A DNA stretch of 64,000 nt from an uncultured Planctomycetales bacterium (GTDB lineage: Bacteria; Omnitrophota; Gorgyraeia; Zapsychrales; Fredricksoniimonadaceae): NCBI GenBank assembly GCA_964520655.1, contig CAZFNI010000002.1, forward strand, positions 128,770 to 192,769. Direction: 5' to 3'. Under the pieces are notes generated by a model. That model did no database searches and was not told the DNA's origin. It saw only the letters and a list, made by a program, of their open reading frames with translations. Below, one piece after another: positions 1 through 51,283 of this stretch (positions within the stretch are counted from its first letter, which is position 1; every line of letters starts with the position of its first letter). The position numbers and the translations under genes were made by a program.

Positions 1-1076
1 GTCCCAATTTCCGCTTTTAAAGACGATAAAAACGCTGACCGAGGATCTCTTGATCCATCAGCTAAAAATGAAAAATGTTCCATTGGCCCGTCTTTTTCTT
101 TCATAACATGCAAAGAATATTGAAAAGCAATTCGTTGATACGGCCTCGTTCCATCATAAAGTGGTATGGCCGGATTAAAGGTTTCAAAATCAAGATAATA
201 TAAAGGATATTTTAAAGTCCGAAGAAACGATTTTATTTCCTCATGATCAGCATGGACGCTGTTCTGCTTGATCGTGTGTCTTTGAATTTGCTGTTTATCC
301 GTCAGTTTATAATCCGCTGGTATTTCTTCTATGGTTTTAATTCCTTGCTGTAATAATTCAAACTTTTTCTCCTTCCCTAGCCAATACAGATTAAAAATAT
401 TTCTCTGGGGCAAAAAAGACCAGCATTGATCTTTTAACGGACACTCATATGGCTCTAAACACTGCATCCCGATTGACACATCCGGGCAGTTCTTTTGCGC
501 AATGGTGCGAAACATCTCCTCAATTCTTGCGGGAATCTGATTAGAAATAGCATTAACTTGATCTGAAATATCCTCGATAAGAAATAATTCGTTTAAATCC
601 AACTCCCCATCCCTCACATATTCATTATTAAGATGTATCAAATGACATTTTCGAATTTTTTGTCCGGCTTTCTCACAACAATATTTTTGGAACGCCACAT
701 CCAGAATATGCTCATCTTTAACACTCGTTGTGCTTTTAACTTCAACGATGTCCCAGAAATAATGATTGACCGGGTTTAAGATGTCAATTCGTGAATACAG
801 CTCATTAGCTAGAATACTGGCTTCAAATAATGGCTTTCTCTGCAAAAGCAAATTCTCTGTCTCAGAAATACTTTCCTTAAAATTGTTGTATGGAATATTT
901 ATCCCTTGCGAGAACATTTTTTTTGCCAATTCGCCAACCTCGTGGCCTTGGTCAAAAACAAATTTCGTTTCGGGATCAGTCGGTGGGATTTTTGATTTAT
1001 CGTTGAATGATATCCAGAGGTATTTATGACATTGTAGTCCGGTGAGATATTTGGATTTGGTGAGTAAAGTGCCCAT
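1..1076 (-). CDS. DUF2779-family protein with N-terminal PD-(D/E)xK (Cas4/RecB-like) nuclease-like region and Cys cluster; 3' end cut by window edge
   Basis: Not in the ORF track because it runs off position 1; found by manual minus-strand translation. Start is an ATG whose complement lies at 1074-1076. Translation: MGTLLTKSKYLTGLQCHKYLW...DIVEVKS...CPDVSIGMQCLEPYECPLKDQC...YPLYYLDFETFNPAIPLYDGTRPYQRIAFQYSLH. The YYLDFET and P(Y/F)QxxFQYSLH motifs are the hallmark of DUF2779. It begins 17 bp after the gajB-like stop, on the same strand. Confidence 0.6.
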   Translation of the reverse strand, partial: MGTLLTKSKYLTGLQCHKYLWISFNDKSKIPPTDPETKFVFDQGHEVGELAKKMFSQGINIPYNNFKESISETENLLLQRKPLFEASILANELYSRIDILNPVNHYFWDIVEVKSTTSVKDEHILDVAFQKYCCEKAGQKIRKCHLIHLNNEYVRDGELDLNELFLIEDISDQVNAISNQIPARIEEMFRTIAQKNCPDVSIGMQCLEPYECPLKDQCWSFLPQRNIFNLYWLGKEKKFELLQQGIKTIEEIPADYKLTDKQQIQRHTIKQNSVHADHEEIKSFLRTLKYPLYYLDFETFNPAIPLYDGTRPYQRIAFQYSLHVMKEKDGPMEHFSFLADGSRDPRSAFLSSLKAEIG

Positions 1077-1092
1077 GTTAAACAATTCATTA

Positions 1093-2208
1093 TCAATTTT
1101 GGACTATAAGTCTATTATCCACATATTCTATAATTCCATCGATATTTTCATCATCCGCGTAATTATAAACAATCCCCACACTGTATTTCGCTCTTGTGAC
1201 TGCAACATAAAACTTGCTCCGACTCGTTGGCGCTAATTCTGACCCATTATTCTTAATCCAATTCATAATAGGCTTTGTTGGATAAATCAAAACACGCTCA
1301 AAAGTGGATCCCTTGGAATTTCCATAATTAATAATGGCACATTGTTTTTTAGTACGTGTTTCTTTGATGCTGTCGCGCAACTGAACACAGCAAGAATACT
1401 CGGCGAAATAACTATCAATATCGTCCTCACGGACAAAAAAGACCCCATCGTGATTTGTAGAAATGTTCTGACCAGAATTTGTTGGCGCATGATCAGGAAA
1501 TATTTTGTTAGCAAAATCACATATTTTCTGATTGCTCCTGTAATTTATTGTCAAAGAGTCACGGTCGATCTCGAGATTCTTTTGAATCTTGCTATCATCA
1601 AAGAAATAAACAATTTGAGACTTCTTAAATTGCTTATTTTTTGAAGAATTGTTTGTTGAGTAAGTTCCCTGCCTCGGGTCTCCAACCAACACAATTCTGG
1701 ATGAAGAAGCAAAAAGTAATTTCAAAAGCTCCAAATCATACCCGGCTAAATCTTGGACTTCGTCTATAAAAATATATGGATAGATTCTCGTCAATCTATT
1801 AATGACGTCGCCATTATTTTGTTTATCGCATTTTAAAACGAACTTTGAAAGCTTGTCTGAATATATTCTATAATTATGATCAAAATAATATTTTTCTACT
1901 TCTGATTCCCTTGTAAATTTCTTTGACTGTCCACTTACGAGCGATAACCCATTTACTCGTCCTTCGAATATGCCACCTTGATATGGCCTAACGCCATGTT
2001 CTAATAGGAAAGAAAACCACGTCTGGATAGTGACATTCGCGGGTACACTACCGCTTTCAAAAATAAACTTCCCTCTGATCTCTTCCTCGTTCGCTTCGGT
2101 AAAAGTAGTAACAAGAACATTCTTATCCTTAACCTTCAAGGCCTCTTTTACCAAATAAGTTGTTTTGCCCGAACCTGCGGCGGCAATCACCAATTTATTC
2201 TTGCACAT
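1093..2208 (-). CDS. gajB: Gabija GajB-like UvrD/PcrA-type SF1 helicase (compact, 371 aa)
   Basis: Walker A AAAGSGKTT at the N-terminus, DExx box IFIDEVQDL, motif VI VAVTRAKYSV; overlaps the upstream OLD-family gene by 14 nt. Confidence 0.55.
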   Translation of the reverse strand: MCKNKLVIAAAGSGKTTYLVKEALKVKDKNVLVTTFTEANEEEIRGKFIFESGSVPANVTIQTWFSFLLEHGVRPYQGGIFEGRVNGLSLVSGQSKKFTRESEVEKYYFDHNYRIYSDKLSKFVLKCDKQNNGDVINRLTRIYPYIFIDEVQDLAGYDLELLKLLFASSSRIVLVGDPRQGTYSTNNSSKNKQFKKSQIVYFFDDSKIQKNLEIDRDSLTINYRSNQKICDFANKIFPDHAPTNSGQNISTNHDGVFFVREDDIDSYFAEYSCCVQLRDSIKETRTKKQCAIINYGNSKGSTFERVLIYPTKPIMNWIKNNGSELAPTSRSKFYVAVTRAKYSVGIVYNYADDENIDGIIEYVDNRLIVQN

Positions 2209-3850
2209 ACTCCCACTCTATTGCGTCTAAAATATACTGGGGTAATTTCACATCTTCGTTCGTATCAAATATTCTTAAAGCACAATCCGTTTTATTAGTC
2301 ACCATGTAATTGCTTATCGCGGACTGATCAGGATATTTTGTTTCATCAATATTTAAGGCACCTCTCAGGACAGCCAATTGTTCTTTATTAGCCTCGACTA
2401 TTTGAGGCTCTAAAGTCTTAAGGTCATTTCTTTGATCTGTACAAATTTTTATTGTTGGAGAATTTACATATTGCTGATATTTCTGTGTAACGTTTTTGTC
2501 AAAAGCCCCGTCATTGTCCGTCACAACTACTACGGGCTTTCTTATCTTTTCAGCAATTTCTAAGAATCTCAAAAATGATGTTCCCACAGAGATAACGTCC
2601 ACTTCATCTTCAATGGGTAAATTTCTTTTACTTTTTAAATATGCTTTTTGAACAATTAATTCATCTGAAGGCCCTTCAACAAGGATCGCTTTCCTGCATA
2701 AAATTAACCTCAACGTATCGTATCCGGCGAGTTTCTCGAAATACTGCTTCGTTTTCTCATCTAAATCCGTAATCCGAACTTCATTTCGTTTTAATGTCAC
2801 TCTGTCAAAATTAAGCAAAATTAAGCTCCCTAGCCCAAGTTTATTTGCCACAAAACTGCTATGCGTGGAAACCATAATTTGCTTTCCTTCATGTCCATCT
2901 TTGAGATGTTTAATCAATTTATTCAGTTTTGAATGAGATAGATGATTTTCTGGTTCCTCAAGCAACAAAATATTGGCTTCTTGTGATTTTTTGTGACTGA
3001 GGGCAAGCCTTGTCTTAACCAAGCACTGCTCCCCTCTACCCGCGTAATTAAAGGGAATTTCATCTAAATAGGTTGTTAAGCTTGTTTCCCAAGCTGTTTT
3101 TGTCGACACATCGACCGACAATTCTACTTTTTTATCAGATATCTGTTTTTGTTCTAACTCTTTATTTATTTCTTTTACAGCGGCGTCATCTGCGAAAGAA
3201 TCTTTTAGCCTTCTATGTGCCTGGGATATTTTTACTTTATGTTCGTCGGAAAGAAGATCACGAATAATGCGAGAAATATAAACATCTGATCCATTCTGAT
3301 AGCGACTATTGGAGGAATCAATTAGTGCGGATTTGAATGGTATCGTTCTTGGAGTCAACCTATCGTCACGGGCAAAAGAAGACCATGAAAAATCATAATA
3401 TTCTATAGGAAGCGAACTTATTTTGTCTCCGCCATCTACTAAGATTTTATATTCATTCTGATATTTTTCGTTGAAAAACATCTTGAATCGAACCCCACAT
3501 TCTTTTTCCTTTATGCTATTTCCGTTTCCTTCAAAAAGCGCCTTAATTGAATCATCTTCAATTTCAAAAAATAATTCGATCTGAATGTGCGGAGGTTGCA
3601 AGCGATTGCTAGTCGCTAAACTATCTAAATAATTTCTTATAACTTTATTGTTGAACAAAGATTGTGTTAGTTCGGTACCCACATATTTGCCATAAATCCA
3701 GCCGGAAAGAGCCAAATGGATCGCTTCCAAAATAGTAGATTTACCCGCTTCATTATCGCCAACTAAAATATTAAGATGCTTGTTAAGCTCTAGACAGAAT
3801 TTGCCTTCAAAGCATTTAAAATTTTCGATAATAATTTTCTTTATGTGCAT
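2195..3850 (-). CDS. gajA: Gabija GajA-like OLD-family ATPase with C-terminal Toprim nuclease domain
   Basis: N-terminal ABC/AAA ATPase typical of OLD family (IIIENFKCF...LVGDNEAGKST); C-terminal Toprim motifs ILVEGPSDE and VVVTDNDG; a class-2 OLD gene immediately followed by a UvrD-like helicase is the Gabija architecture. Confidence 0.6.
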   Translation of the reverse strand: MHIKKIIIENFKCFEGKFCLELNKHLNILVGDNEAGKSTILEAIHLALSGWIYGKYVGTELTQSLFNNKVIRNYLDSLATSNRLQPPHIQIELFFEIEDDSIKALFEGNGNSIKEKECGVRFKMFFNEKYQNEYKILVDGGDKISSLPIEYYDFSWSSFARDDRLTPRTIPFKSALIDSSNSRYQNGSDVYISRIIRDLLSDEHKVKISQAHRRLKDSFADDAAVKEINKELEQKQISDKKVELSVDVSTKTAWETSLTTYLDEIPFNYAGRGEQCLVKTRLALSHKKSQEANILLLEEPENHLSHSKLNKLIKHLKDGHEGKQIMVSTHSSFVANKLGLGSLILLNFDRVTLKRNEVRITDLDEKTKQYFEKLAGYDTLRLILCRKAILVEGPSDELIVQKAYLKSKRNLPIEDEVDVISVGTSFLRFLEIAEKIRKPVVVVTDNDGAFDKNVTQKYQQYVNSPTIKICTDQRNDLKTLEPQIVEANKEQLAVLRGALNIDETKYPDQSAISNYMVTNKTDCALRIFDTNEDVKLPQYILDAIEWEYVQE

Positions 3851-3985
3851 ATTTTATCCTGCAAGCTCGCCGCGGAAGGCTTTGGCTAAATAGCCAATCG
3901 GCCTTATAGTTTTTATACTGCCACTAGTTAACAGAACGTGATCAATTTGTTAGAATAGGGCTCGTAACCGAAAGGAGCCTTATTC

Positions 3986-4261
3986 ATGAAATACCGACAA
4001 TGGACCAGCAAACAAAAATCACAGATCGTACTTGAGGGCCTCTCCGGACAGATCGACATCACCAAACTATGCCAGAAATACCAAGTCTCGCAAGCGCAGT
4101 ATTACAAATGGCGCGACGCTTTCCTGGTCAACTGCCACCAGTCCTTTGAAGTCAAAAAACAGTCACAAAAAGAACAATATCTGGAAGGCAAAGTTCAAAA
4201 ACTGACCAAGATTATCGGAGATCTGACCATTGAGTTAAAAAAAAGCGAATACGAGCTATGA
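3986..4261 (+). CDS. IS3-family transposase OrfA (HTH)
   Basis: 91 aa; MKYRQWTSKQKSQIV...YYKWRDAF is typical of IS3/IS911 OrfA; its TGA overlaps the ATG of orfB (ATGA). Confidence 0.85.
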   Translation: MKYRQWTSKQKSQIVLEGLSGQIDITKLCQKYQVSQAQYYKWRDAFLVNCHQSFEVKKQSQKEQYLEGKVQKLTKIIGDLTIELKKSEYEL

Positions 4262-5046
4262 AACGAACCCGCGCCCAATCAACCATACAAAGAGACCTGG
4301 AACTGCTGGCCGTCATCAATCCGATCAAAACCGACCATCCCCTCTGGGGGTATCGTCGTGTCTGGGCGTATTTAAAATACCGCCAGAATTATTCCGTCGC
4401 CATTAATCGCGTGTATCGTATTATGAAAGAGCATCAAATGATCGTCACCAAACTTCAACGGTTACGCGCTCGACGCGGCCCCATGCGCTCAAAGCCACGA
4501 TCACATCAGCCCAACCACTTTTGGGGTATCGACATGACCAAGATAAAAATCTATCCCTGGGGCTGGCTGTATCTGTGTATCGTTCTCGATTGGTGCACCA
4601 AAGAAATCGTTGGTTATTCGTTAAGCATTCAGTCCAAAACCGATGACTGGTTATCAGCCGTTGAAATGGCCGTCAATAACCGATTCCCTAACGGCATCAA
4701 ATCCGATTTAAAAAAACAGTTGTTCTTGATCTCAGATAACGGCTGTCAGCCGACATCCCAGCGGTTCATGATGAACTGTTCGCTTTTGGGCATCAAACAA
4801 ATCTTTACAACTTGGTCTAATCCCAAAGGCAATTCCGACACCGAACGCGTCATGCGAACACTCAAAGAGGACCTGGTCTGGACCTATGACTGGGATAATC
4901 CCTTCGCCTTCAGCGAAGCCTTGAGAAACTGGATCGTCGCTTACAATACCGACTATCCCCATCAGTCCTTAAATAACATGACGCCGACGCAGTATTACGA
5001 ACAATTTAACAAAGAACCCGTTCTAACAAATTTTTCCCTTGCTTAA
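4258..5046 (+). CDS. IS3-family transposase OrfB (DDE integrase core)
   Basis: 262 aa; rve-type integrase catalytic core (WGIDMTKI..., LISDNGCQPTS, ...E). Confidence 0.85.
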   Translation: MKRTRAQSTIQRDLELLAVINPIKTDHPLWGYRRVWAYLKYRQNYSVAINRVYRIMKEHQMIVTKLQRLRARRGPMRSKPRSHQPNHFWGIDMTKIKIYPWGWLYLCIVLDWCTKEIVGYSLSIQSKTDDWLSAVEMAVNNRFPNGIKSDLKKQLFLISDNGCQPTSQRFMMNCSLLGIKQIFTTWSNPKGNSDTERVMRTLKEDLVWTYDWDNPFAFSEALRNWIVAYNTDYPHQSLNNMTPTQYYEQFNKEPVLTNFSLA

Positions 5047-5063
5047 GTAGTGGCATTACATTT

Positions 5064-6542
5064 TTACTTCCTCAATTTCTCAATAATCCCCTTAAAACTT
5101 TCCAACCCTGCTTCGATATTCTCAATAATCTCAACCGCAAGTACATCTGGATCGGGGAGATTGTCGAGATCAGTTAAGCTTTTATCCTTAAGCCAGAAAA
5201 TATCGAGGCTGGTCTTATCCCGGGCGACGATCTGGTCATAATTAAACTTACGCCAACGGCCTTCGGGATTTTTCTCCGACCATGTTTCCTTACGCTTGTG
5301 GCGGTTGGCTGGGTTATAACACTCACTGAACTCTTTAAGATCTTCAAACTTCAATGTATTCTTCTTAAGTGTGAAATGTATATTCGTCCGGAAGTCGTAA
5401 ATCCACACTTCTTTGGTTTGCGCGTTCTTGCTTGCTGGCCGATTATCAAAAAAAATGACATTTGCTTTCACTCCCGGCTTATAAAAAATCCCCGTCGGTA
5501 AGCGTAGAATGGTATGCAGGTCAGTTGTTTCTAAAAGCTTCTTACGCACGGTCTCACCCGCACCTCCCTCAAAAAGAACGTTATCGGGCACAACAACCCC
5601 AGCCTTACCATCAACTTTAAGCATGGTGTGGATATGCTGGACAAAATTGAGTTGCTTATTTGAAGTTGTCGCCCAAAAATCCTGACGATTATAGACAAGA
5701 TCTTCAGATTCTTCTTCACCTTCCTCATTAGTAAAGGTCATACTGCTTTTTTTACCAAATGGCGGATTCGTTAAAACATAGTCAAATCGCAGACCATTGT
5801 CCGCAATTAAGGCATCTGATCGCTCAACCGGTGGTAAATTGTCAAGATCGCCTATGTTATGCAAAAATAAATTCATCAAACACAAACGTGCTGTACTCTG
5901 TACAATCTCCCATCCTTTAAAAGTCTTAAATTTTAAGAATTGAAGTTCTTCTTTATTAAGTTGATAGTTATTTTTATTGGTAATGAAGTCGTAGACCGCA
6001 AGAAAAAAACCACCCGTTCCACATGCTGGATCAGCAATCATCTTTTCAGGTTCGGGGCGCATACATTCAACAATGGCTCGAATCAATGCACGAGGAGTAA
6101 AATACTGCCCTGCACCGCTTTTTGTATCCTCAGCATTTTTCTCAAGCAAACCTTCATAAATATCACCTTTAATATCTGCCCCTATCTTGACCCACATTTC
6201 TTGATCAATCATCTGGACAATACGGTAAAGCTTTGCTGGGTCGGTAATTTTATTTTGTGACTTAAAGAAAATCTTGCCGAGCATTCCGCTTTTCTGACCA
6301 AATTCACGTAAAAGCGTGACATAGTGCGTCTCAAGTTCTGCCCCACGCTTGCTGACCAATGTTTCCCAGCGATATTCCTTAGGAATATCCATTTTGCGAT
6401 TATAAGGCGGCTTTGAATATTCATCAGCCATCTTAAGAAACAACAAATATGTCAATTGCTCCAAATAATCGCCATATCCCACGCCATCATCTTTAAGCAC
6501 ATTACAAAACGACCAAACTTTTGATACCAATGCCTCAGTCAT
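5064..6542 (-). CDS. hsdM: Type I restriction-modification N6-adenine DNA methyltransferase subunit
   Basis: HsdM N-terminal domain (VWSFCNVLKDDGVGYGDYLEQLTYLLFLKMADE) and NPPFG catalytic motif; overlaps hsdS by 8 nt. Confidence 0.9.
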   Translation of the reverse strand: MTEALVSKVWSFCNVLKDDGVGYGDYLEQLTYLLFLKMADEYSKPPYNRKMDIPKEYRWETLVSKRGAELETHYVTLLREFGQKSGMLGKIFFKSQNKITDPAKLYRIVQMIDQEMWVKIGADIKGDIYEGLLEKNAEDTKSGAGQYFTPRALIRAIVECMRPEPEKMIADPACGTGGFFLAVYDFITNKNNYQLNKEELQFLKFKTFKGWEIVQSTARLCLMNLFLHNIGDLDNLPPVERSDALIADNGLRFDYVLTNPPFGKKSSMTFTNEEGEEESEDLVYNRQDFWATTSNKQLNFVQHIHTMLKVDGKAGVVVPDNVLFEGGAGETVRKKLLETTDLHTILRLPTGIFYKPGVKANVIFFDNRPASKNAQTKEVWIYDFRTNIHFTLKKNTLKFEDLKEFSECYNPANRHKRKETWSEKNPEGRWRKFNYDQIVARDKTSLDIFWLKDKSLTDLDNLPDPDVLAVEIIENIEAGLESFKGIIEKLRK

Positions 6543-7893
6543 GCTTCTTTTTTCCTTTCGACTTAACCTCTAAAGCTTCTTTTTCAGCTTTTATCCTTTG
6601 GAGCAAGGCCTTGGCTGAATTATCACCGGATGTTAAATTTTTGTGTTCTTTACGCCATTGCTCCGTTAAGTTGCCTTCAAATGCCTTCTTTAAAACACTC
6701 TGTCGAAGGACTTCGGCTTTTTGTATACTTTCATTAATGGTTAATTCAAGAGAATCGCAAAACGAAAAACGAGATTCTACATCCTCAACTATTTTTAACT
6801 GATCTTCCAAAGAACAAAAAGGAATTAGCAGATCTTTAATCTCTTCAGAATTAATATTATGAACTCCACTTGTCGATTTCGCTTTGCCTTCAATCTGATT
6901 CCTTAATTGTGGCGAAGATAGAATATACTGTAAATAATAGCTATTCAGATTTGATTTTAGCCTAAGCCGTATTAGATAACCTGCATACAGAGCATGAGTA
7001 TCTTTCTTGGTTACAATAGCTGTTTTACCTACGAGAGAAACACTGCCGTTAGAACGAATCATCAGCAAATCGCCTTCTATAAGTGAATATTTATTCACTT
7101 CATCATTAGTAAAATAAGCATACTTTAAATCAGACAGGTCAATATATTGACTCCCAATATTCGGTATTCTTAAAACAGCTTTCCCGATAGAATCTTTTCT
7201 ACATTTACGTGCCGTCCCATATTTAGGTTGTTCAATAAAATTTCCAAATTTTACAAAATCCTTCCCTATTGCTATTTGGTTTAACACCGAATAACGATAA
7301 ACTTTCAACTGCTCTTTAGCTTTTTTAAAATTTTCGATGGCGTTGTCGAGATCGGAAAAAAATTCTTCGATTACAGAAATTATGCGTTCTTGCTCGGCTG
7401 TAGGGGCAATTAATATTGGAATCACATTTACTTTTGATAAAGGGATTGAGGGCAAGGTGGTAGCATGAGCAATGTGATTGAAGTCAACTGTCTTAAGCCA
7501 ATAATATATCCAGTCACTTAAAATACCATCGTAGGGCATGGCAATTGCGATATGACTGACAACATACATATCCGTCTTTAATACTGCTCTTTGATTTAAT
7601 AGGCTTGATGCACCACTTTTAGTAAATAGAACCGTCCCCTTTGGAAAAAGTTTCATTCTTTCAATAGCACTATGATTAATGCGATCAGCTGTATCCATAA
7701 TATATTTACTTATCCCTAATCGCCCCATATCTTGGACACGGACAAAAGGATATGTGCCGTTATCGAAAAATTGATTTCCTTGAGGAGCAGGATTACCTGC
7801 ACCCAATTTTGTAATATTTCCAAGAGGAGCTTGTGCCCAATTTTCAGGAAGCATACTTCGATCATCTAATAAAACTGTTGAATTCTTTTTCAA
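6535..7893 (-). CDS. hsdS: Type I restriction-modification specificity subunit with two target-recognition domains
   Basis: 452 aa with two TRD-like halves separated by a coiled-coil conserved region; sits between hsdR and hsdM with 4-8 nt overlaps. Confidence 0.85.
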   Translation of the reverse strand: MKKNSTVLLDDRSMLPENWAQAPLGNITKLGAGNPAPQGNQFFDNGTYPFVRVQDMGRLGISKYIMDTADRINHSAIERMKLFPKGTVLFTKSGASSLLNQRAVLKTDMYVVSHIAIAMPYDGILSDWIYYWLKTVDFNHIAHATTLPSIPLSKVNVIPILIAPTAEQERIISVIEEFFSDLDNAIENFKKAKEQLKVYRYSVLNQIAIGKDFVKFGNFIEQPKYGTARKCRKDSIGKAVLRIPNIGSQYIDLSDLKYAYFTNDEVNKYSLIEGDLLMIRSNGSVSLVGKTAIVTKKDTHALYAGYLIRLRLKSNLNSYYLQYILSSPQLRNQIEGKAKSTSGVHNINSEEIKDLLIPFCSLEDQLKIVEDVESRFSFCDSLELTINESIQKAEVLRQSVLKKAFEGNLTEQWRKEHKNLTSGDNSAKALLQRIKAEKEALEVKSKGKKKHD

Positions 7894-10634
7894 GCTACCA
7901 GCACCTCGTTTAATTCTTCAATTAACTTGTCTGCCTCATCACCAAAAAGCTCATGGAGTTTTCCAAGTCCACCACGGTCGCCAAATGGCGACAACTCAAA
8001 GTCGTCTTTCTCAATATGAAATGACGTGGCAATGTGATCACGAATCATATAAAGCCATTCCATCTGCTCTTTTGTGAAATGCTTATGCCCTGATTGCGCG
8101 TGGACAACCCAATCACGAAAATTCCGACGTGCTATGGCATCGTAATCAGATAGTTTTTTATCTATGTTGACAATACGGCGAATAAGCCCCACTAAAGCCG
8201 TCAACTCACTCTTGGGGTTTTCGCTCACGTTCTCCAAATGCGCATACGCATCCCAAACCCGAAGCGGTGCTAAATTTGGTTTCTTCTCGCGCAATGTTTC
8301 AAAGACTTCCTTGATCATCTTGTAGGTTATTTCTCGCCTACGAAACGGCTGACTGTAAAAAATAACCAGCGCTTGAATCTCATCTTTATGTTGCTCAAGA
8401 AAACTTTTAAAATCCTGAATCAAACTTTGCGCTTGGTCTTTGGCCTGCTGATCCCACCCTGCGAAGGTAACACGGTCAATATTGACAGTATCAATGATCT
8501 GCTCAAAAGAGCGACGAACGGTTTCAATATATTCGTTGAGAGGTCCGTTAAAAATACTGCTAGCTTGTTTTGATAACTCTTCTTTAGCGCGTTTAAGTTT
8601 TTCATCTTGTGAAATATCAATAGTAGAGAAAAGTTGTCCTGCCTTTTCCTCAATACGATCCGGGTTATGTGCATCAAGTAGACCATTCACAACAGCACCT
8701 AAAGGCATTCCACCGGACAATTCTTTTATTTTCTGACGTTCTTTATCTTTAATCTGACGATCCATGCGCGTTAAACGATTTGCCAACGATAGAAAAGTAT
8801 CTTCATCCCGGGCGCCCATCATAACGGCATTAAGCAAATCTTTAAGTGGAACGGCGCTCTTACGTTCAAGAGGACGACTGTCGGTTTTAAGTGACTTTGT
8901 AACTCCAACAGCATCAACAACGACAAAATGATCTTTTTCATATTTTGCAGAGGGTGTAACTCTCCTAAGATCATCTAATCCAAGAGTTCTTGTTCCGCGG
9001 CCTTTCATTTGTTCAAAATAATTAGCAGAGCGCACGTCGCGCATAAAAAGTAAGCATTCTAAAGGCTTCACGTCTGTGCCGGTTGCGATCATATCTACAG
9101 TGACAGCGATGCGTGGATTGTATGAGTTTCTAAACTGAGCAAGCAAGGTATCGCCATCTTCTTCAGCTTTATAGGTAATCTTTTTACAGAAATCATTTCC
9201 TTCGGCAAACTCTTCCCGCACAATCTCGATAATATCGTCGGCGTGGCTGTCGGTCTTTGCAAAAATTAAAGTCTTAGGAACTTCTTTACGGCCGGGGAAT
9301 AACTCAGGCAACTTATTTTTAAATGTTTTAATAACATTACGAATTTGGCTTGGATTGACTACACTACGATCCAAATCTTTTCCAGAGTATTTGATTTCTT
9401 CATCCGTCTGTTCCCAGCGTTTTTTGCGAGTCAACCGTTCTCTCACATCCACAAATTCTTTGGCCTGAATGGTTCCTCCCTGCTGTGTTCGTTCTGTATC
9501 AATGATATAAACGTTGAATCCCACATTAACCCCGTCGGCGACAGCGCGTTCGTGTGGATATTCACTGACAACATTCTCTTTGAAGAAACCAAAGGTACGT
9601 TTATCAGGAGTTGCTGTCAATCCGATTAAGAAAGCATCAAAATAATCCAACACCTGTTGCCACAGGTTATAAATTGAGCGGTGACATTCATCGATGACAA
9701 TAAAATCAAAAAACTCAAGCGGAACCTTTTCGTTGTAAATTACAGGCATCGGTGCTTTTGGCTGCCATACTTCATTGGGATTAACCTCTTCAGCAGATTC
9801 GTCAAGCTCATCCCCTTTTAAAATCGAATAAAGACGCTGAATAGTACTAATACACACTTGACTGTCTTTTGAAACATAGCTCGACTTCAACCTCTGGACA
9901 TTATAGAGTTCAGTGAATTTACGATTGTCGTCGTTTGGTGTATATGCCATGAATTCCTGCTCAGCTTGTTTGCCGAGGTTTCTTGTATCAACGAGAAAAA
10001 GCACTCGTTTGGCCTTTGCAAATTTAAGCAGACGGTAAATGGAAGTAATGGCGGTAAAAGTCTTTCCACTTCCCGTTGCCATCTGAATAAGTGCTCGGGG
10101 GTAATTGTCTCTAAAAGATTTCTCAAGATTCCTGATGGCTTTAATCTGGCAGTCACGCAGACCTTTTTCATCAAGAACAGGTATATCTTGAAACCTTGCC
10201 CGTAATGTTTTTGGAGTCGCAAGCCATTCTTTAAATGTTTCTGGTTTGTGAAAAGAAAATACTTGGCGCGCTCGAGGTTTTGGATCGCTGAAATCGGTGA
10301 ATCGAGTTATTTCACCAGTGCTTTCATAAACATAACTAAGCGGAGCGTTATTGACATATTTAAGCTGTGCCAAAGCATATGCTTCAGCTTGTGCCTCGTG
10401 GACAGTTAGACGATGGCCCTCTTCCTCTCGCTTAGCTTCAATAACACCGACTGGTTTGCGGTCAACAAAAAGGACATAATCAACAGGGCCAATGTCGGTT
10501 GGATACTCCCGAACAGCAATGCCTAGTCCAGCATTAAAGTTCAATGCTTTTCTGTCTTGTACTTTCCATCCAGACTGAATAAGCAAGTCATCAATTTTAT
10601 CGCGGGCTATTTGTTCAGGGTTTTGATTTACCAT
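7890..10634 (-). CDS. hsdR: Type I restriction enzyme R (endonuclease/helicase) subunit
   Basis: HsdR N-terminal nuclease domain (...DLLIQSGWKV...DYVLF...), SF2 helicase Walker A MATGSGKTFT and DECHRS box, long helical C-terminus. Confidence 0.85.
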   Translation of the reverse strand: MVNQNPEQIARDKIDDLLIQSGWKVQDRKALNFNAGLGIAVREYPTDIGPVDYVLFVDRKPVGVIEAKREEEGHRLTVHEAQAEAYALAQLKYVNNAPLSYVYESTGEITRFTDFSDPKPRARQVFSFHKPETFKEWLATPKTLRARFQDIPVLDEKGLRDCQIKAIRNLEKSFRDNYPRALIQMATGSGKTFTAITSIYRLLKFAKAKRVLFLVDTRNLGKQAEQEFMAYTPNDDNRKFTELYNVQRLKSSYVSKDSQVCISTIQRLYSILKGDELDESAEEVNPNEVWQPKAPMPVIYNEKVPLEFFDFIVIDECHRSIYNLWQQVLDYFDAFLIGLTATPDKRTFGFFKENVVSEYPHERAVADGVNVGFNVYIIDTERTQQGGTIQAKEFVDVRERLTRKKRWEQTDEEIKYSGKDLDRSVVNPSQIRNVIKTFKNKLPELFPGRKEVPKTLIFAKTDSHADDIIEIVREEFAEGNDFCKKITYKAEEDGDTLLAQFRNSYNPRIAVTVDMIATGTDVKPLECLLFMRDVRSANYFEQMKGRGTRTLGLDDLRRVTPSAKYEKDHFVVVDAVGVTKSLKTDSRPLERKSAVPLKDLLNAVMMGARDEDTFLSLANRLTRMDRQIKDKERQKIKELSGGMPLGAVVNGLLDAHNPDRIEEKAGQLFSTIDISQDEKLKRAKEELSKQASSIFNGPLNEYIETVRRSFEQIIDTVNIDRVTFAGWDQQAKDQAQSLIQDFKSFLEQHKDEIQALVIFYSQPFRRREITYKMIKEVFETLREKKPNLAPLRVWDAYAHLENVSENPKSELTALVGLIRRIVNIDKKLSDYDAIARRNFRDWVVHAQSGHKHFTKEQMEWLYMIRDHIATSFHIEKDDFELSPFGDRGGLGKLHELFGDEADKLIEELNEVLVA

Positions 10635-10636
10635 AT

Positions 10637-11353
10637 TTATTCCATTTTTCCTTCATCAGCAAAACTGAAAAAATTATCACCGCCGATAATAATATGATCC
10701 TGCACTTTTATTTCCATTAGCTTCCCAGCATCACAGAGTTCTTTGGTAAATTTCTTATCTTGGGCGCTAGGCGCAGTTTCTCCGCTGGGATGGTTATGAA
10801 CACAAACGATTGATTTGGCGAATTTCTGTAAAGCGGTGTGAATTATTTCGCGGATAATTGGAAAGGCATGATCGACCGTTCCAACAGCGGCATCGGAAAT
10901 ATCTATGATTCGATTATTGTTATCAAGATAGACAACCTTAAAGACTTCGGTCTTAAGGTCGCGCATGTGGGGCAAAACGATGTCAACAATGTCTTTGGCG
11001 GAAGCGATTTTCTGCTTGCCCGGCGACACAACATCCTGCTGATAGCGCCGCCCGATCTCAAGCGCGGCCTGAATGTGGGCAATCTTAGCACCACCTAAAC
11101 CTTTGAATTCCTTCCAATCGCGGGTGTCGGTATGGGCCATGCTCCTGAAGGAGCCGAATTTACTCAGGATTTTGCGGGAAAGCTCCACGGCGCTGGTTCC
11201 GGCCGTGCCGGTGCGCAACAAAATAGCCAAGAGTTCTGAATTGCTTAAAGCACCCGCGCCTTTCTTGAGCAATTTCTCTCTTGGCCTGTCATCCAGCGGC
11301 CATGATTTGATGCCTGATAATTTTAAATTTTTCGTCACGTTTTCTGAACCCAA
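10637..11353 (-). CDS. radC: RadC-like JAB/MPN domain protein (UPF0758)
   Basis: LSNSELLAILLRTGT... helix-hairpin-helix region and JAMM motif HNHPSG; 3 nt after the hsdR stop. Confidence 0.8.
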   Translation of the reverse strand: MGSENVTKNLKLSGIKSWPLDDRPREKLLKKGAGALSNSELLAILLRTGTAGTSAVELSRKILSKFGSFRSMAHTDTRDWKEFKGLGGAKIAHIQAALEIGRRYQQDVVSPGKQKIASAKDIVDIVLPHMRDLKTEVFKVVYLDNNNRIIDISDAAVGTVDHAFPIIREIIHTALQKFAKSIVCVHNHPSGETAPSAQDKKFTKELCDAGKLMEIKVQDHIIIGGDNFFSFADEGKME

Positions 11354-11470
11354 TTCTTCCTAAAAAAGCGTCTGTTTTAATTCTGTGATAGCTACCCACC
11401 CCTCACTCGTATTAAAAATCTTATAACCTACATAACTCCAAATATTTATACTGAAATAACATCATCATTT

Positions 11471-11502
11471 TTGTCACAAAAAGCATATACTTTTTGTGAC
11501 AA
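11471..11502. promoter_or_regulatory. Perfect palindrome TTGTCACAAAAAG-CATATA-CTTTTTGTGACAA (13-bp arms); candidate operator/terminator at the distal boundary of the AbiE cassette
   Basis: Seen directly. Lies 14 bp past the phosphoesterase stop and ~120 bp upstream of the radC start. A near-identical palindrome sits at 13699-13728 on the other side of the cassette. Confidence 0.4.
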
Positions 11503-11515
11503 GATTTGGCACCAT

Positions 11516-12052
11516 CTAGTTAACCTTACCCTGCTTTTCTTCCTTCAGAAAATCAGAAATAGCAGAGGTGATCTGTTTAAAAGCGATCGGATAAAAATCC
11601 CAAACATCAACAGACAGATTGACAATCAAAGATTTTTTATCCAGCCGTTTCACCTTGTAATGCTGATGCACATGGCCGCAGAAATTCCAAGGCACCGATA
11701 GATCAGCATCTTCCGGCTTATGAATCATACAAATATCTTTAGCGCCATAATGGATATACATCTTTGTTATGATCGCATTGAGACTGTTGTTACGGTCATG
11801 ATTACCTTTAATGAATATGAACTTGCCGTTTAGCCTCTTTTCAAAGTTCAGGGCTCTCTGCTCTCCGCCTTCTTTTCCGCCTTTAAAAATAAAATCACCC
11901 AGAAAAAACACAGTATCCTCAGACTTAACCCGCTCATTGTGTTTGCGGATAATCGTTTCATTCATTTCCTCAACCGTTGCGAAAGGCCTGCCGCAATAGC
12001 GAATTATATTGAAATGTGAAAAATGATAATCGGATGCCCACCAACAATTCAT
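11516..12052 (-). CDS. Small calcineurin-like metallophosphoesterase
   Basis: 178 aa with phosphoesterase motifs SDYHFSH, LGDFIFKGG and GNHD; 3 nt after the AbiEii stop, same strand. Confidence 0.65.
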   Translation of the reverse strand: MNCWWASDYHFSHFNIIRYCGRPFATVEEMNETIIRKHNERVKSEDTVFFLGDFIFKGGKEGGEQRALNFEKRLNGKFIFIKGNHDRNNSLNAIITKMYIHYGAKDICMIHKPEDADLSVPWNFCGHVHQHYKVKRLDKKSLIVNLSVDVWDFYPIAFKQITSAISDFLKEEKQGKVN

Positions 12053-12054
12053 GA

Positions 12055-13128
12055 TCAGATCCTGTTAATTTTTTCTTCAATGATCCTCAGTTCTTCTATA
12101 ATGCGCTCAAATGATGGCGGCTCCTCAAAAAACATTTGTTGCATCTGACGGTAATCATTCTTTAATTGGCTCATTTGATCATCGCGAGGCAATAACCGCA
12201 AACCTCCCGGCTTTGCAGTGTCATAATGCGCCCAGTTCGCTTTAAAAAATAAAGTTTTATGATCCGCAACAGACTTAAGCAATGAAATATTTTCCAAAGC
12301 GCGTTTATAAATAGGTGAATCCGCCAGCGCGTATATGTCGTAATAATGCCGCGACATCCGTAGTGGTACATTCTTCTCAGGCGGATAATGATAAATCATA
12401 TGCAAGATCGTTGCTTTCTCCCAGAAAGTCCGCTCTGCGGCTAAAACACGTACAGAAGCCCCTTCAATGGCCGTCTCACCTGAAACATTGGTGACATACG
12501 GAGAAATGGTCGCGGTTTCAACTGGCCAATGATCGGATCGTGCGCCGAATTCAATTTTGACCGATGATCGCACATAGCTTTCCGCATTACTCGTCATGGC
12601 ATGAGGGAAAATAAACAAAACTGTTTGTCCGTCCTCATCTTCTGAATCCACTTCAATCTTCCACTCCTCTTTGGCACCCAGAACCGCCGTAACCGCTTGC
12701 CTTAAAGCAGGAAGAATTGTTTGATCAATGCTCTTCTTACAAACCAGTTGTAATTTTTCAAGCCGTTTCTGATTCTCTTTATTGCTTTCTTCTTTATCCG
12801 GCTCAATCGCTTCGGACTTCAATAAAAAAGGCCTCTCTATTGAAATGTCAATGTCCTCTGAAAAACGTTTAATCACGTTATAGCATTTTGAAAGGGATGT
12901 CCCTCCTTTAAATGTCAAATGCTCGCCTATTTTTGGTAATGAAAAAAGGATTTTGAGTATCCAGCACACCCAGAAATCCTTTTCGACTAATTGCGGCATG
13001 ATATTTAAATTAGCCGCAGTCACTTCAAAATAAGCGCGTTTATCTTTGTGCGGTAATAATGCGAATTTATTCATAAACTTCTCATTCTTGTAATTGCCGA
13101 AATATCGTTCCAATCCATGCGGGGGCAT
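12055..13128 (-). CDS. abiEii: AbiEii/AbiGii-family nucleotidyltransferase toxin (DUF1814)
   Basis: FKGGTSLSKCY...RFSEDIDISI nucleotidyltransferase motif typical of AbiEii; overlaps the upstream AbiEi-like gene. Confidence 0.75.
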   Translation of the reverse strand: MPPHGLERYFGNYKNEKFMNKFALLPHKDKRAYFEVTAANLNIMPQLVEKDFWVCWILKILFSLPKIGEHLTFKGGTSLSKCYNVIKRFSEDIDISIERPFLLKSEAIEPDKEESNKENQKRLEKLQLVCKKSIDQTILPALRQAVTAVLGAKEEWKIEVDSEDEDGQTVLFIFPHAMTSNAESYVRSSVKIEFGARSDHWPVETATISPYVTNVSGETAIEGASVRVLAAERTFWEKATILHMIYHYPPEKNVPLRMSRHYYDIYALADSPIYKRALENISLLKSVADHKTLFFKANWAHYDTAKPGGLRLLPRDDQMSQLKNDYRQMQQMFFEEPPSFERIIEELRIIEEKINRI

Positions 13129-13681
13129 AACGAAGGTCAGCGATCAGCTCGCGCTTATCATCCTTGGTTAATCTCTTTCTAAGTATTTCAATTGTTTTAT
13201 CACTCACGTGATCTTTGCCTAAATACCGCAAGGCTTGAATAACTAAACCGCTAACATGCCCCGCGGTAGCCATATTCTTGGGTGTGGTTCTTTTTAAAAC
13301 AATTTGCTGATTTTTGATCTGCACCTTACGATTAGCGCCGTCTGTCAAAAAAATAATTCTTGCCGGTACCTGCTCGGTCAAGCCCAGCAGATTAGCGGCA
13401 TATGCTCCGGAAGGCTGAATTTTCAGATTATCCCTTCCTGCCAATGCTTGAGCAAGACGGTCATAATTCGCAGGCAGATCTCCCAAAACAGGATGTTTTT
13501 CTGGGTAGTCATACAAACCGCGAGCAAGTCGGCGAATTGTTCCAGAATCTGCCAAACGTTCCAAAGCTTTGGCCACGGCGGAGCGGTTTCCGAGGTCAAG
13601 AAAGTGAGTTGAGGTGAACACCCAACCCCTTCTTCTTCCATAAATTTTACTAACTACTCTATTATAAATGCTTTGCGTCAT
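13082..13681 (-). CDS. abiEi: AbiEi-like antitoxin / transcriptional regulator (type IV TA)
   Basis: 199 aa; N-terminal winged-HTH-like region (GWVFTSTHFLDLGNRSAVAKALERLADSGTIRRLARGLY) and the characteristic pairing with AbiEii. Confidence 0.7.
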   Translation of the reverse strand: MTQSIYNRVVSKIYGRRRGWVFTSTHFLDLGNRSAVAKALERLADSGTIRRLARGLYDYPEKHPVLGDLPANYDRLAQALAGRDNLKIQPSGAYAANLLGLTEQVPARIIFLTDGANRKVQIKNQQIVLKRTTPKNMATAGHVSGLVIQALRYLGKDHVSDKTIEILRKRLTKDDKRELIADLRYAPAWIGTIFRQLQE

Positions 13682-13698
13682 TTATATCACCTCTTATT

Positions 13699-13728
13699 TG
13701 TCGCAAAAAGTATATAGTTTTTGCGACA
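13699..13728. promoter_or_regulatory. Palindrome TGTCGCAAAAA-N8-TTTTTGCGACA, 18-47 bp upstream of the abiEi start; candidate AbiEi autoregulatory operator
   Basis: Seen directly; consensus shared with 11471-11502: TGTC(A/G)CAAAAA...TTTTTG(T/C)GACA. Confidence 0.45.
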
Positions 13729-14117
13729 TACTGTCAAGCCATTTTTAGGAGAGGAATCGACGAAAATAACATTCTTTAATGTTCATTAAATAGTGAACAT
13801 TGGCACAAGCTGAACATTCGCAAGGGGCATTTCAATGGCGCAAAAAGTGGATAGTTTCTGTGGACACATTTATGTCAATTCATGTCACTCAAAAACAGCC
13901 TTTTTGACCACCGCAGGAGCATGTAGAATGCCTCTAAATACGCCTATTCTCCGTCCAGAAACGATTGTTTTTACCATTCTGAATAAGATTGCCACGGATG
14001 CCGATTTGAGTGACATTGACATCAATTTTTTGGGCCATAATCACTGACAACCTGCGCCTCGCCCGACCCGCATCCCCACACCCCCCCTGGAAGGACCCGT
14101 AAACAAAAAACCTATTT

Positions 14118-15248
14118 CTATTTATTGTTCCCTACCGGCCATAAAATATCATAATGAACACTGCGTCCCTTGCCGGACAATTGGCGCAATAACTTTTTCT
14201 CAAGCATGTCCGAAATCTCACGAAACGCGGTCGCCCTGCTAGTGCTTGCCAAGCTCACATATTTGCGGGTTGTTAATCCTCCGACAAATTCACCTTGCCC
14301 TTCATCCAACATACGGTTAAGGACTTTCTTTTGACGCTCATTAATCTCGGTCTGCGCATGTTGTGCCCAAAAATCCGCCTTGAGCAATACTTTACCAATA
14401 ATTTTATCAGACCTTTGAATAGTACGTTGATAGCACCCTAAGAACCAAAGAAGCCAGTTCGTCAAATCCAGATTGTCAGCCTTGGAACATTTTTCAAGAA
14501 TTTTATAATAACTGTCCCTTTCTTCCATGATCTGCGATGAGAAACTATAATATCGCACCTTAAGCTTTTCGTCCTGCGCCAAGGCCATATCTGTTAGACT
14601 CCGTGCAATGCGCCCATTACCATCTTCGAAAGGATGGATTGTCAAAAAATAAAAATGCGCTATCCCTGCACGCAAAAGTCCATCTGTGGTTGTGAAGCTC
14701 GCCTTCCACCATTGAAAGAATTTCCGCATTTCGGCTTCAACGGCTTCTCCCGGAGGCGCTTCAAAATGAACCCGTTCACGCCCCATAGGCCCAGACACAA
14801 CACGCATCGGCTCTTGGCCTCTCCATTGACCTACGCGAATCTTATGAAGTCCCGAGTAGCCTGTTGGAAAAAGCGCCCCATGCCAACCTTGTAATCGATC
14901 CCTATTAAGGGTCTTAGCGTAATTTTGAGTGGCATCCAGAATAATCTCAACGATGCCATCGACAGATCTGGATGATCGTCCTAGCCCAACTGTGGGAAGA
15001 CCCAAATGTCTTGCGACAGATGATCGCACCATTTGAAGATTAAGTAGTTCCCCCTCGATTTCCGATGTCTTAATGACTTCCTCAATTAAAATATCAGCTT
15101 GTGCCTCTTCTTCAAGCTTAAACCCCAATCGCTTAACGCGACCCAATAGATCACCCTGAGCAAGCCTCGCCTGTCCCAAAATCGACAAAAGGGTATTGCT
15201 GTCCCATGTGAATTCCGGCCAAGAATGATGTTGCCATATGTATTTCAT
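14118..15248 (-). CDS. Fic/DOC family protein (putative AMPylator)
   Basis: Canonical Fic motif HPFEDGNGRIARSL inside FYFLTIHPFEDGNGR. Confidence 0.85.
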   Translation of the reverse strand: MKYIWQHHSWPEFTWDSNTLLSILGQARLAQGDLLGRVKRLGFKLEEEAQADILIEEVIKTSEIEGELLNLQMVRSSVARHLGLPTVGLGRSSRSVDGIVEIILDATQNYAKTLNRDRLQGWHGALFPTGYSGLHKIRVGQWRGQEPMRVVSGPMGRERVHFEAPPGEAVEAEMRKFFQWWKASFTTTDGLLRAGIAHFYFLTIHPFEDGNGRIARSLTDMALAQDEKLKVRYYSFSSQIMEERDSYYKILEKCSKADNLDLTNWLLWFLGCYQRTIQRSDKIIGKVLLKADFWAQHAQTEINERQKKVLNRMLDEGQGEFVGGLTTRKYVSLASTSRATAFREISDMLEKKLLRQLSGKGRSVHYDILWPVGNNK

Positions 15249-50500: not shown

Positions 50501-51283
50501 CTTTTCACGCTGACGGGCACGCTGGGCTTCCTCCTGCTGGCGGGCTTCTTCCTTTTGGTCCGCCTTGGAAAGAGCAACTTCCGTCTGAATGATGTTCTGG
50601 TCAATGATCCTCAAATAACTATTTGTTCCCTTATAGTTATCCGACAATTCCTGAACATGAGAGAACATCTCTTTGGCTTCTTTATATTTTTTCTCTTTAT
50701 AATAGGCAACAGCCTGTTCGTAGGCGCCTGCAGCATCGGAAAGCTTAACCTGCTTTTCCTGAATCTGCAGACGAACCTGCTGCTTCTCCTGTCTCTTGAT
50801 CGCGATTTCCTGGGCTTTTAATTTTTCCGCGCTTTGGTTGATGTATTTCGTCATTTCAGGATGTTCAGTGATATTGATGGCCTTTTCAAAATATTCGCGG
50901 GCCTGATCAAACTTCCCTTCATCCTGCAGCTCCATCCCTTTTTCGTAATATTCCCTGGCCCGCTCCTCACGTTTTTGATTGCGTTTGACAACCGACTGCT
51001 CTTTGATCTTATCGTTGACGCGTTTTATATTTTCGCGGGATTTGATGATGAGTTTTTTCAGATCGTAGACGTAACTGGAAGCCGCCTCAGATGTATCCTG
51101 GTCAGAGGCAGCAGCCTCCATGTCGCCGTCTTTGGCTGGCTTGGAGTGGTCTTCATTGACAACAGCAGCAGCGGAATCAACCGAAGGCTCATTATCAAGC
51201 CCAGTAGCGGGCTGACCGGCGAACGCCGGAGAAGCTATTAATAATAGGAAATAAAGAATAACATATGACATAATTTTTATCAT
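47507..51283 (-). CDS. 1258-aa secreted, highly charged coiled-coil protein with seven dispersed TPR-like helical-hairpin modules
   Basis: Start is an ATG whose complement lies at 51281-51283, overlapping the giant gene's TGA (ATGA). Signal peptide [22 protein letters not shown]. Seven repeats of Y.EA..L...KKY.EAK..F..V....P.YK......Y separated by KE/RE-rich linkers. Confidence 0.7.

Follow-up and report, generated by a model that had tools for sequence, protein, structure and literature searches.

A predicted double nuclease of the DUF2779 family behind a Gabija-like gajA-gajB pair and other bacterial defence cassettes

Introduction

Gabija is one of the commonest anti-phage systems, and how it discriminates self from non-self at DNA ends is debated. 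This report concerns a Gabija-like locus at the start of a 64,000-nucleotide stretch of DNA from an uncultured bacterium assigned to the Omnitrophota in the GTDB (assembly GCA_964520655.1, contig CAZFNI010000002.1, positions 128,770 to 192,769). The whole of this stretch is referred to here as the window. At the locus, a gajA-gajB pair (gajAB) is followed on the same strand by a third gene, whose product belongs to the DUF2779 family (Pfam PF11074). The gajAB pair itself is of a known type. The DUF2779 gene appended to it makes this a variant arrangement. In a search of the literature, the gajAB-DUF2779 arrangement was not found described, and no report was found that ties DUF2779 or PF11074 to Gabija or to other defence operons. 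An earlier note on the window had drawn attention to the three genes and had proposed that the third could be either an accessory part of the system or an independent gene of the same defence island. In the sections that follow, the genes are described, the linkage of DUF2779 to gajAB and to other defence genes is counted, and the possible roles of the DUF2779 protein are weighed.

The gajA-gajB Pair

The gajA gene (3850..2195, minus strand) encodes a protein of 551 amino acids that combines an OLD-family ABC-type ATPase with a Toprim nuclease and belongs to the short type of Gabija and to class 2 of the OLD proteins. The gajB gene (2208..1093, minus strand) encodes a short UvrD-like superfamily 1 (SF1) helicase of 371 amino acids, and its start shares 14 nucleotides with the end of gajA. 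This combination of an OLD-family ATPase-Toprim protein and an overlapping UvrD-like helicase had been called Gabija-like in the earlier note, and both Pfam and PADLOC bear that out. In Pfam, GajA matches AAA_15 (1.1e-20, residues 1-335) and OLD-like_TOPRIM (1.8e-11, residues 385-447), and GajB matches UvrD-helicase (5.9e-16) together with AAA_19 and UvrD_C. In PADLOC, residues 1-546 of GajA align to positions 1-531 of the 532 of the GajA model PDLC00102, that is over its full length (1e-206), and the GajB model PDLC00148 matches GajB across its full length (1.1e-131).

The motifs expected of both proteins are present. Across 34 GajA homologues including that of the window, Walker A G36/K37, E298/E299 and the Toprim residues E392/D445/D447 are invariant. 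Across 31 GajB homologues, again including that of the window, the same is true of Walker A G12/G14/K15/T16, D149-E150-x-Q152, R179/Q180, R224 and R339. The alignment columns thus have the Walker A and B, Toprim acidic and helicase motifs all intact in the window GajA and GajB.

PADLOC models for other subfamilies also match the window proteins, at 1.9e-40 for GajA and 4.1e-28 for GajB. When phmmer and family profiles were run against the PDB, the best matches were the class 2 OLD protein of T. scotoductus (6P74) for GajA and UvrD, AddA and RecB for GajB, and the B. cereus Gabija chains were not among the matches at E<=0.01. Judged from these comparisons, the accurate label for the pair is Gabija-like, Gabija being the name given to it by PADLOC, and gajAB is by its sequence a further member, of ordinary type, of a subfamily already annotated. 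To our knowledge, no member of the short-type Gabija subfamily has been tested experimentally.

The DUF2779 Gene and Its Product

The stop codon of gajB (1095-1093) is separated from the ATG of the DUF2779 gene by a spacer at 1092-1077 on the minus strand, which has 16 nucleotides when read from the sequence. The earlier note was right about the orientation and the closeness of the third gene but gave the spacer as 17 nucleotides. It had also described the gene as cut by the window edge, as is the case: the gene (1..1076, minus strand) begins with the ATG at 1076 and continues past base 1, so that its 5' 73% (358 of 491 codons) lies inside. At the junction between gajB and DUF2779, for which an independent promoter or terminator had been suggested as a point to check, no terminator- or promoter-like site was predicted in or near the 16-nucleotide spacer, such scans being weak evidence. 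Because of the short gap and the lack of a predicted terminator, gajA, gajB and DUF2779 are probably co-transcribed.

The window fragment matches Pfam DUF2779 (PF11074) over residues 293-357, the first half of the domain, with an E-value of 2.4e-20 and 73.5 bits (cut-off 23.3), and it carries the two motifs, YYLDFET and FQYSLH, by which the family had been recognised in the earlier note. The profile matches of all three genes lie well outside what chance would give. A full-length product of 491 amino acids, P0242, was recovered via the 90% cluster of the window fragment. It is identical to the fragment at 358 of 358 residues, its contig is as long (203,739 bp) as that of the window GajA and GajB, and it is taken as the full-length product of the window gene. 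P0242 matches PF11074 at 2.7e-43 (147.6 bits) over profile positions 1-126 of 126.

The protein appears to contain two nuclease domains. In the N-terminal half, the codons of a PD-(D/E)xK core, D98 ... E112-x-K114 (RIDIL ... WDIVEVK), lie at 735..785 on the minus strand. The earlier note had pointed to a PD-(D/E)xK-like N-terminus at DIVEVK, and the invariance of E112 and K114 and the fold matches described below agree with this. The cysteine cluster that it had also seen consists of C16 (1031..1029) and the triad C206-x5-C212-x5-C218 (423..461, minus strand), which together may form a putative 4Cys iron-sulfur (Fe-S) site, by analogy with Cas4, AddB and EXO5. The DUF2779 domain, an RNase H-like domain of DEDDy type, starts within the window (1..200, minus strand, from the Pfam coordinates) with ExoI, D296-x-E298, in invariant columns within YYLDFET. 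ExoII (F370-E371) and ExoIII (Y469-x3-D473) are present in P0242, past the window edge. D98, E112, K114, D296, E298, E371, Y469 and D473 are invariant in both family alignments, which have 27 and 60 members. The four cysteines show no variation among the 60 members of the larger alignment, and among the 27 of the smaller one they are nearly invariant (>=90%).

The DUF2779 profile gave no useful match to PDB sequences and a fold search was therefore used. The AlphaFold2 model of P0001, which is 87% identical to the window protein, has a mean confidence score (pLDDT) of 91.6. With Foldseek, the N-terminal half of this model matched the PD-(D/E)xK folds of RecE, Cas4, EXO5 and a lambda-exonuclease-like protein (LHK-Exo), and the C-terminal half matched the herpes simplex virus (HSV) polymerase exonuclease, TREX1 and RNase H folds. 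These results agree with the two papers that discuss the DUF2779 family, both computational, in which it is assigned to the 3'-5' exonucleases (PMC3985635; PMC13621843). At the level of fold and motif, the DUF2779 protein is thus predicted to be a Cas4/RecB-like PD-(D/E)xK nuclease joined to a DEDDy 3'-5' exonuclease. The family is large. Of the candidates scored, 3,758 proteins matched at E<=1e-5, and members from different phyla share about 55% identity.

The possibility that the third gene is the Cas4 of a CRISPR system was considered separately. The Cas4-type Foldseek matches of the N-terminal domain were 4r5q (7.7e-4), 7mi4 and 4ic1, together with a weak match to ACE1 (9iac). The Cas4 models of PADLOC match the DUF2779 protein weakly (2.7e-6), and the DUF2779 family is otherwise absent from PADLOC 2.0. 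With Pfam Cas_Cas4 (PF01930), the match had an E-value of 0.22 and 12.1 bits, below the cut-off of 22.7, and no cas genes were found among the 15 genes annotated in window positions 1-15248. The Cas4 assignment was rejected on these two grounds.

Linkage of DUF2779 to gajAB

An alignment of short GajB proteins was scanned against one genome per species (185,579 species) and gave 335 relatives. Here, as in the other scan, only the best 80 loci (designated by L numbers) were analysed and genes were called by a greedy longest-open-reading-frame rule. The counts below come from small samples with crude gene calls and from loci that are not phylogenetically independent. All 80 loci carry gajA, which is at position -1 in 79 of them and about 3.2 kb upstream of gajB in L080. 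DUF2779 is at position +1 in 4 of the 75 evaluable species-level loci, namely L048 (Oligoflexia), L052 and L060 (both Saccharibacteria) and L085 (Arcobacter). Counting these four, 6 of the 80 loci have DUF2779 within 8 kb, and in the two with it beyond +1 (L046 and L066) other genes intervene after gajB. A hidden Markov model of the family revealed no further DUF2779 copies in the best 80 gajAB loci, and DUF2779 is absent from the 8 gajAB loci on viral contigs. The partial +1 gene behind a 75%-identical gajB in L168 was also considered as a candidate; it is another gene and was excluded. These counts agree with the view of the earlier note that DUF2779 lies outside canonical Gabija.

The co-occurrence of the two across genomes, which that note had proposed to examine, is therefore not conserved, yet it is enriched over expectation. 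The 771 neighbour proteins of short-type gajAB fall into 542 clusters, and among these DUF2779 is the commonest +1 neighbour. It was observed four times at +1 against two cases at all other positions within five genes, from which about 0.28 would be expected at +1 (a rough Poisson P of 2e-4, indicative only, as relatedness is ignored). The junctions between gajB and DUF2779 are short: the genes overlap by 4 nucleotides (ATGA) in L052 and L060 and also overlap in L085, and they are 1 nucleotide apart in L048, 16 in the window and 33 in L001. The DUF2779-linked loci are spread over four separate GajB clades, those of the Saccharibacteria, the Oligoflexia, Arcobacter and the window lineage. The adjacency of gajAB and DUF2779 is not random.

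Is the locus then a true three-component variant of Gabija? Its dedicated effector or sensor would in that case be DUF2779, bound to GajAB and, in the loci that have it, either required for defence or modifying it. The tight or overlapping junctions and the rank of DUF2779 as the top +1 neighbour would be consistent with this. The three genes also appear to be co-inherited, with GajA, GajB and DUF2779 identities in step between the window and L001 (83, 89 and 84%) and between L046 and L048 (80, 72 and 78%). A precedent for accessory or replacement modules exists in type II Gabija, which consists of GajB and the MazF-like GajC, so that Gabija is modular and GajB can pair with another nuclease (PMC13069673). 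However, DUF2779 is found in about 5% of the related gajAB loci, the nearest GajB relatives lack it, L046 and L066 have genes between gajB and DUF2779, and the closest homologues of the window DUF2779 protein follow other systems such as restriction-modification (RM) and DRT3. Moreover, the gajAB cassette is nearly the same in L052 and L060 (GajA 86%, GajB 83% and gajAB 77% identical at the nucleotide level), yet identity between the two DUF2779 proteins is only 37% and the nucleotide homology of the loci stops about 30 nucleotides inside DUF2779. Because of this low identity, a co-evolved interface between GajAB and DUF2779 is disfavoured. A three-component system is in our judgement improbable, and DUF2779 seems to be a facultative extra or customary neighbour of Gabija, not a regular component or a subunit of it.

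Two side observations were made at these loci. A DUF2130 protein is at +1 of short-type gajAB in three Campylobacterota genomes (L064 9084-10376, L070 2828-4150 and L079 9085-10389) and also adjoins an 'ATP-dependent endonuclease' on the A. butzleri plasmid NZ_CP104379 (L184 1111-2397). OLD-family nucleases may have a second companion in DUF2130, one confined to particular lineages. In L048, there are two DUF2779 genes (9085-10581 and 11984-13492) whose products are 41% identical. The copy that adjoins gajB is interrupted by one in-frame TGA (9832-9834), perhaps as a pseudogene or through a sequencing error.

DUF2779 beside Other Defence Genes

The five closest homologues of the window protein all lie among defence genes. 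Upstream of DUF2779, the nearest homologue (L001, about 83-84% identity) has gajA-gajB, as the window does; the others have hsdR (72% identity), a type I RM system (71%), Drt3a/Drt3b (70%) and a type II RM system (67%). In the wider sample, 65 of 76 loci have an upstream gene in the same orientation as DUF2779, and the median gap between the two is about 30 nucleotides. The neighbourhoods are hypervariable, the 453 neighbour proteins falling into 413 clusters. About one sixth of the upstream genes are of defence type and match REase_I, HEC-05, PDC-M55C, Drt3b, Drt6, PDC-S11, PDC-S26, PDC-S01, DndC, GmrSD and Schlafen-like families, with per-member counts that are approximate because the PADLOC output is given by family and not by member. 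A type I RM system was also weighed as the real partner of DUF2779 in place of Gabija. Such a system is upstream in the window, L003, L005, L046 and L052. However, of the 71 DUF2779 loci sampled only 2 have it at -1, and islands of all kinds often carry one, so the idea was set aside.

DUF2779 is also carried on plasmids. There were 33 plasmid records with DUF2779 (mostly Arcobacter, Aliarcobacter and Helicobacter) and 70 with short gajB (mostly Xanthomonas, Rhizobium and Agrobacterium), and no record with both was among the matches listed. Three plasmid copies of DUF2779 were examined and all are amid defence-type genes. On plasmid p2 of Planktothrix agardhii (L183, NZ_LR882954.1 1-9526), a co-directional array contains SspD, two hypothetical proteins (one ORC/CDC6-like), a PbeA-like helicase, an MzaB-like HATPase, DUF2779 and a PLD-family protein, and it looks like an unclassified phosphorothioate-linked defence locus. 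On the A. butzleri plasmid (L184 5905-6993), PDC-S26 (PDDEXK_4) is directly upstream of DUF2779 with a gap of 1 nucleotide. The same family is directly upstream at one metagenome locus of L086-L165 and hence at two unrelated places in all. On plasmid pM830MA of A. cryaerophilus (L185, NZ_MK715471.1 59471-74937), SbcCD-like genes are followed by a 954-amino-acid DUF4145-NACHT ATPase, DUF2779, MkoC-like helicases and a dGTPase.

These neighbourhoods might be explained if DUF2779 were an independent single-gene defence or anti-plasmid nuclease, whose place behind gajAB would reflect island packing and cassette exchange only. The hypervariable surroundings, the share of upstream genes that match PADLOC defence families and the presence of the five nearest homologues and three plasmid copies amid defence genes all fit this explanation. 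The two copies in L048, one interrupted by TGA, fit the turnover of defence genes, and the identity of about 55% across phyla suggests horizontal spread. Packing would not, however, readily account for an enrichment that is specific to position +1, and the 4-nucleotide stop/start overlaps are hard to attribute to it alone. In addition, the family is missing from PADLOC 2.0 apart from the weak Cas4 matches, and the majority of the sampled neighbours are non-defence genes. We regard an independent defence nuclease as unlikely, though the likeliest of the alternatives to the interpretation favoured below. The earlier note had left the choice between an accessory part and an independent gene open, and the data lie between the two: co-occurrence is far from conserved, yet adjacency is above expectation.

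Exchange of Cassettes Upstream of DUF2779

Comparison of related loci revealed that what lies upstream of DUF2779 can be replaced. In Arcobacter, L085 and pM830MA share their flanks, an SbcD/SbcC-like upstream side and DUF2779 on the downstream side, at 66-74% nucleotide identity. The slot between these flanks is occupied by gajAB in L085 and by the DUF4145-NACHT ATPase in pM830MA. Similarly, in the window and L004, RadC (56% identity) and DUF2779 (67% identity) bracket quite different defence genes. The cassettes exchanged upstream of DUF2779 include Gabija, type I RM, DRT3, the NACHT ATPase and PDC-S26.

A conserved flank beside varying content could point to another explanation, in which DUF2779 is a housekeeping nuclease for DNA repair or recycling that flanks an integration or recombination hotspot and has no defence role. 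This is the arrangement seen in the window and L004 (with RadC on the other side), in L003 and L004, and in L085 and pM830MA. Housekeeping genes are also frequent among the neighbours of DUF2779, and a member of the family is quasi-essential in JCVI-syn3.0 (PMC13621843). On the other hand, synteny is not conserved even between fairly close homologues, DUF2779 occurs on plasmids, and L048 carries a duplicate of which one copy has a nonsense codon. The hotspot flank would have to arise anew in four phyla, and each time it would have to lie 3' of the cassette, in the same orientation and within a few nucleotides of it. L052 and L060 have gajAB in common but not DUF2779, whereas from a conserved core flank the reverse would be expected within a lineage. 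A purely housekeeping role is in our judgement improbable as well.

Genomic Context in the Window

The window carries the 3' end of a chromosomal defence island. Read along the minus strand, the genes ahead of gajA encode a DUF4172-Fic protein (15248..14118), DUF6088 (13681..13082) and AbiEii (13128..12055), which form an AbiE pair, a metallophosphoesterase (12052..11516), RadC (11353..10637) and a type I RM system, all recognised with Pfam. The RM system consists of hsdR (10634..7890; ResIII/HSDR_N/EcoEI_R_C), hsdS (7893..6535; Methylase_S) and hsdM (6542..5064; N6_Mtase/HsdM_N). On the plus strand, an insertion sequence of the IS3 family (3919..5055) with orfA (3986-4261) and orfB (4258-5046) follows, with Pfam matches to HTH_Tnp_1, rve and HTH_21. 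It has TG..CA ends, imperfect terminal inverted repeats of about 40 nucleotides and a GC content of 0.46-0.47, compared with 0.36-0.38 in its flanks. After it come gajA, gajB and DUF2779, and all genes in this series except those of the insertion sequence are co-oriented. The element sits 5-8 nucleotides past the hsdM stop and 68 nucleotides ahead of the gajA start, and without it the gap between the RM system and gajA would be about 72 nucleotides. It interrupts an otherwise continuous RM-Gabija-DUF2779 array and may affect the transcription of gajA.

Part of this order is found elsewhere. In L167 (3049-4684), AbiEii and then a metallophosphoesterase lie upstream of a 77%-identical gajAB, as in window positions 11516-13128, which suggests that L167 and the window share a larger common island segment. 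Elsewhere the window carries ordinary chromosomal genes, among them those for GshA, acetolactate synthase and a MiaB-like protein. A 3330-amino-acid open reading frame at 51280-61272 on the minus strand has no Pfam match at E<=1e-5. It is preceded by a TPR protein (61381-63036) and followed by another of 1272 amino acids (47507-51325).

Favoured Interpretation and Proposed Mechanism

The interpretation that we favour, tentatively and as somewhat short of probable, is that DUF2779 is a widespread, portable tail-end nuclease that borders variable defence slots in several phyla and acts as a system-agnostic processor of DNA ends. It is seen as system-agnostic and not as Gabija-specific, given that RM, DRT3 and NLR-like genes are also found ahead of it. 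A nuclease of this kind would also account for a linkage that is tight and recurrent without obligate dependence. In favour of the interpretation are the position-specific linkage to short-type gajAB, the exchange of cassettes, the other partners of DUF2779 and the precedent that type II Gabija sets for modularity.

Several findings weigh against this interpretation. More than 90% of the short-type gajAB loci examined lack DUF2779, as do the three nearest metagenomic GajB relatives (75-79% identity) and L007 (73%), so that Gabija of this type can do without DUF2779 in more than 90% of cases. No gajAB was found in the 80 metagenomic DUF2779 loci (41-54% identity) and 6 viral ones (0 of 86). Many neighbours of DUF2779 have housekeeping functions, among them SurE, GrpE, TrpA and transporters. 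The quasi-essential protein of JCVI-syn3.0, MMSYN1_0389, is a divergent member of the family (PMC13621843), and its quasi-essentiality points to a function other than defence, in that lineage at least. Lastly, the pattern of a conserved flank can also be obtained from a recombination hotspot without any functional link.

In the mechanism proposed, GajA would nick or cut invading DNA and GajB, as an SF1 helicase/NTPase, would engage the resulting or incoming DNA ends, both by analogy with studied Gabija systems. Gabija has been reported to act on DNA ends free of RecBCD (PMC12407980). The DUF2779 protein would then degrade the nicked or linear DNA made or held by the upstream system, in the 5'-3' direction with its Cas4/RecB-like domain and in the 3'-5' direction with its DEDDy domain. 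GajB and DUF2779 together could thereby form a split RecB/AddAB-like helicase-nuclease.

A more specific version of the favoured interpretation would make DUF2779 a portable finisher. It would be a private RecBCD-like double exonuclease, co-transcribed behind Gabija, type I RM, DRT3, NLR-like ATPases and PDC-S26, that boosts or completes their action by destroying DNA ends in both polarities and forms a split helicase-nuclease with the short GajB. In this full form the proposal is doubtful. If true, it would add to bacterial immunity a new class of accessory gene, one shared between systems, and a large DUF family would gain its first function.

Even as a general helper, a double nuclease found repeatedly behind Gabija and other DNA-targeting cassettes would be a testable candidate for shared processing of DNA ends, and a helper role, if true, would provide the first functional handle on the uncharacterised PF11074 family with its thousands of members. 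If the link is only positional, the locus still illustrates clearly how cassettes are exchanged in a slot that has a conserved gene at its border.

Comparison with Known Systems

The window pair has the same gene order as the Gabija systems of B. cereus VD045 and P. aeruginosa PA14, an ABC ATPase-Toprim gene followed by an overlapping gene for an SF1 UvrD-like helicase. It differs from them in belonging to a distinct short subfamily, in which GajB has 371 amino acids and matches the PADLOC GajB models of 458-515 positions only over its N-terminal two thirds, and in having an extra nuclease gene after gajB. In type II Gabija, the MazF-like nuclease takes the place of GajA, while the window locus retains GajA and adds an unrelated double nuclease. 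The name GajC is already in use for the MazF-like protein.

RecBCD and AddAB offer another parallel. GajB, whose profile matches include UvrD, AddA and RecB, provides an SF1 UvrD-like motor beside a RecB-family PD-(D/E)xK nuclease with a cysteine cluster of the AddB/Cas4 type. RecBCD and AddAB act at DNA ends, and the same is predicted for GajB and DUF2779. Unlike these complexes, GajB and DUF2779 are separate polypeptides in a hypothetical partnership, with an additional DEDDy exonuclease and no identified parts for Chi recognition or RecA loading.

Within PF11074, which is clade F.17 of the RNase H-like proteins and the UU173 family, and which includes MMSYN1_0389 of JCVI-syn3.0, the window protein has the same two-domain build and has retained all catalytic residues. 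It has also kept all four cysteines, whereas MMSYN1_0389 retains two (PMC13621843) and the DUF2779 copies of Saccharibacteria lack most of them. Finally, Cas4 and the accessory Cas4-family nucleases such as the Argonaute-associated ACE1 have the N-terminal fold and the 4Cys pattern in common with the DUF2779 protein, in which, unlike in Cas4, this part is fused to a DEDDy exonuclease. They too accompany another immune system.

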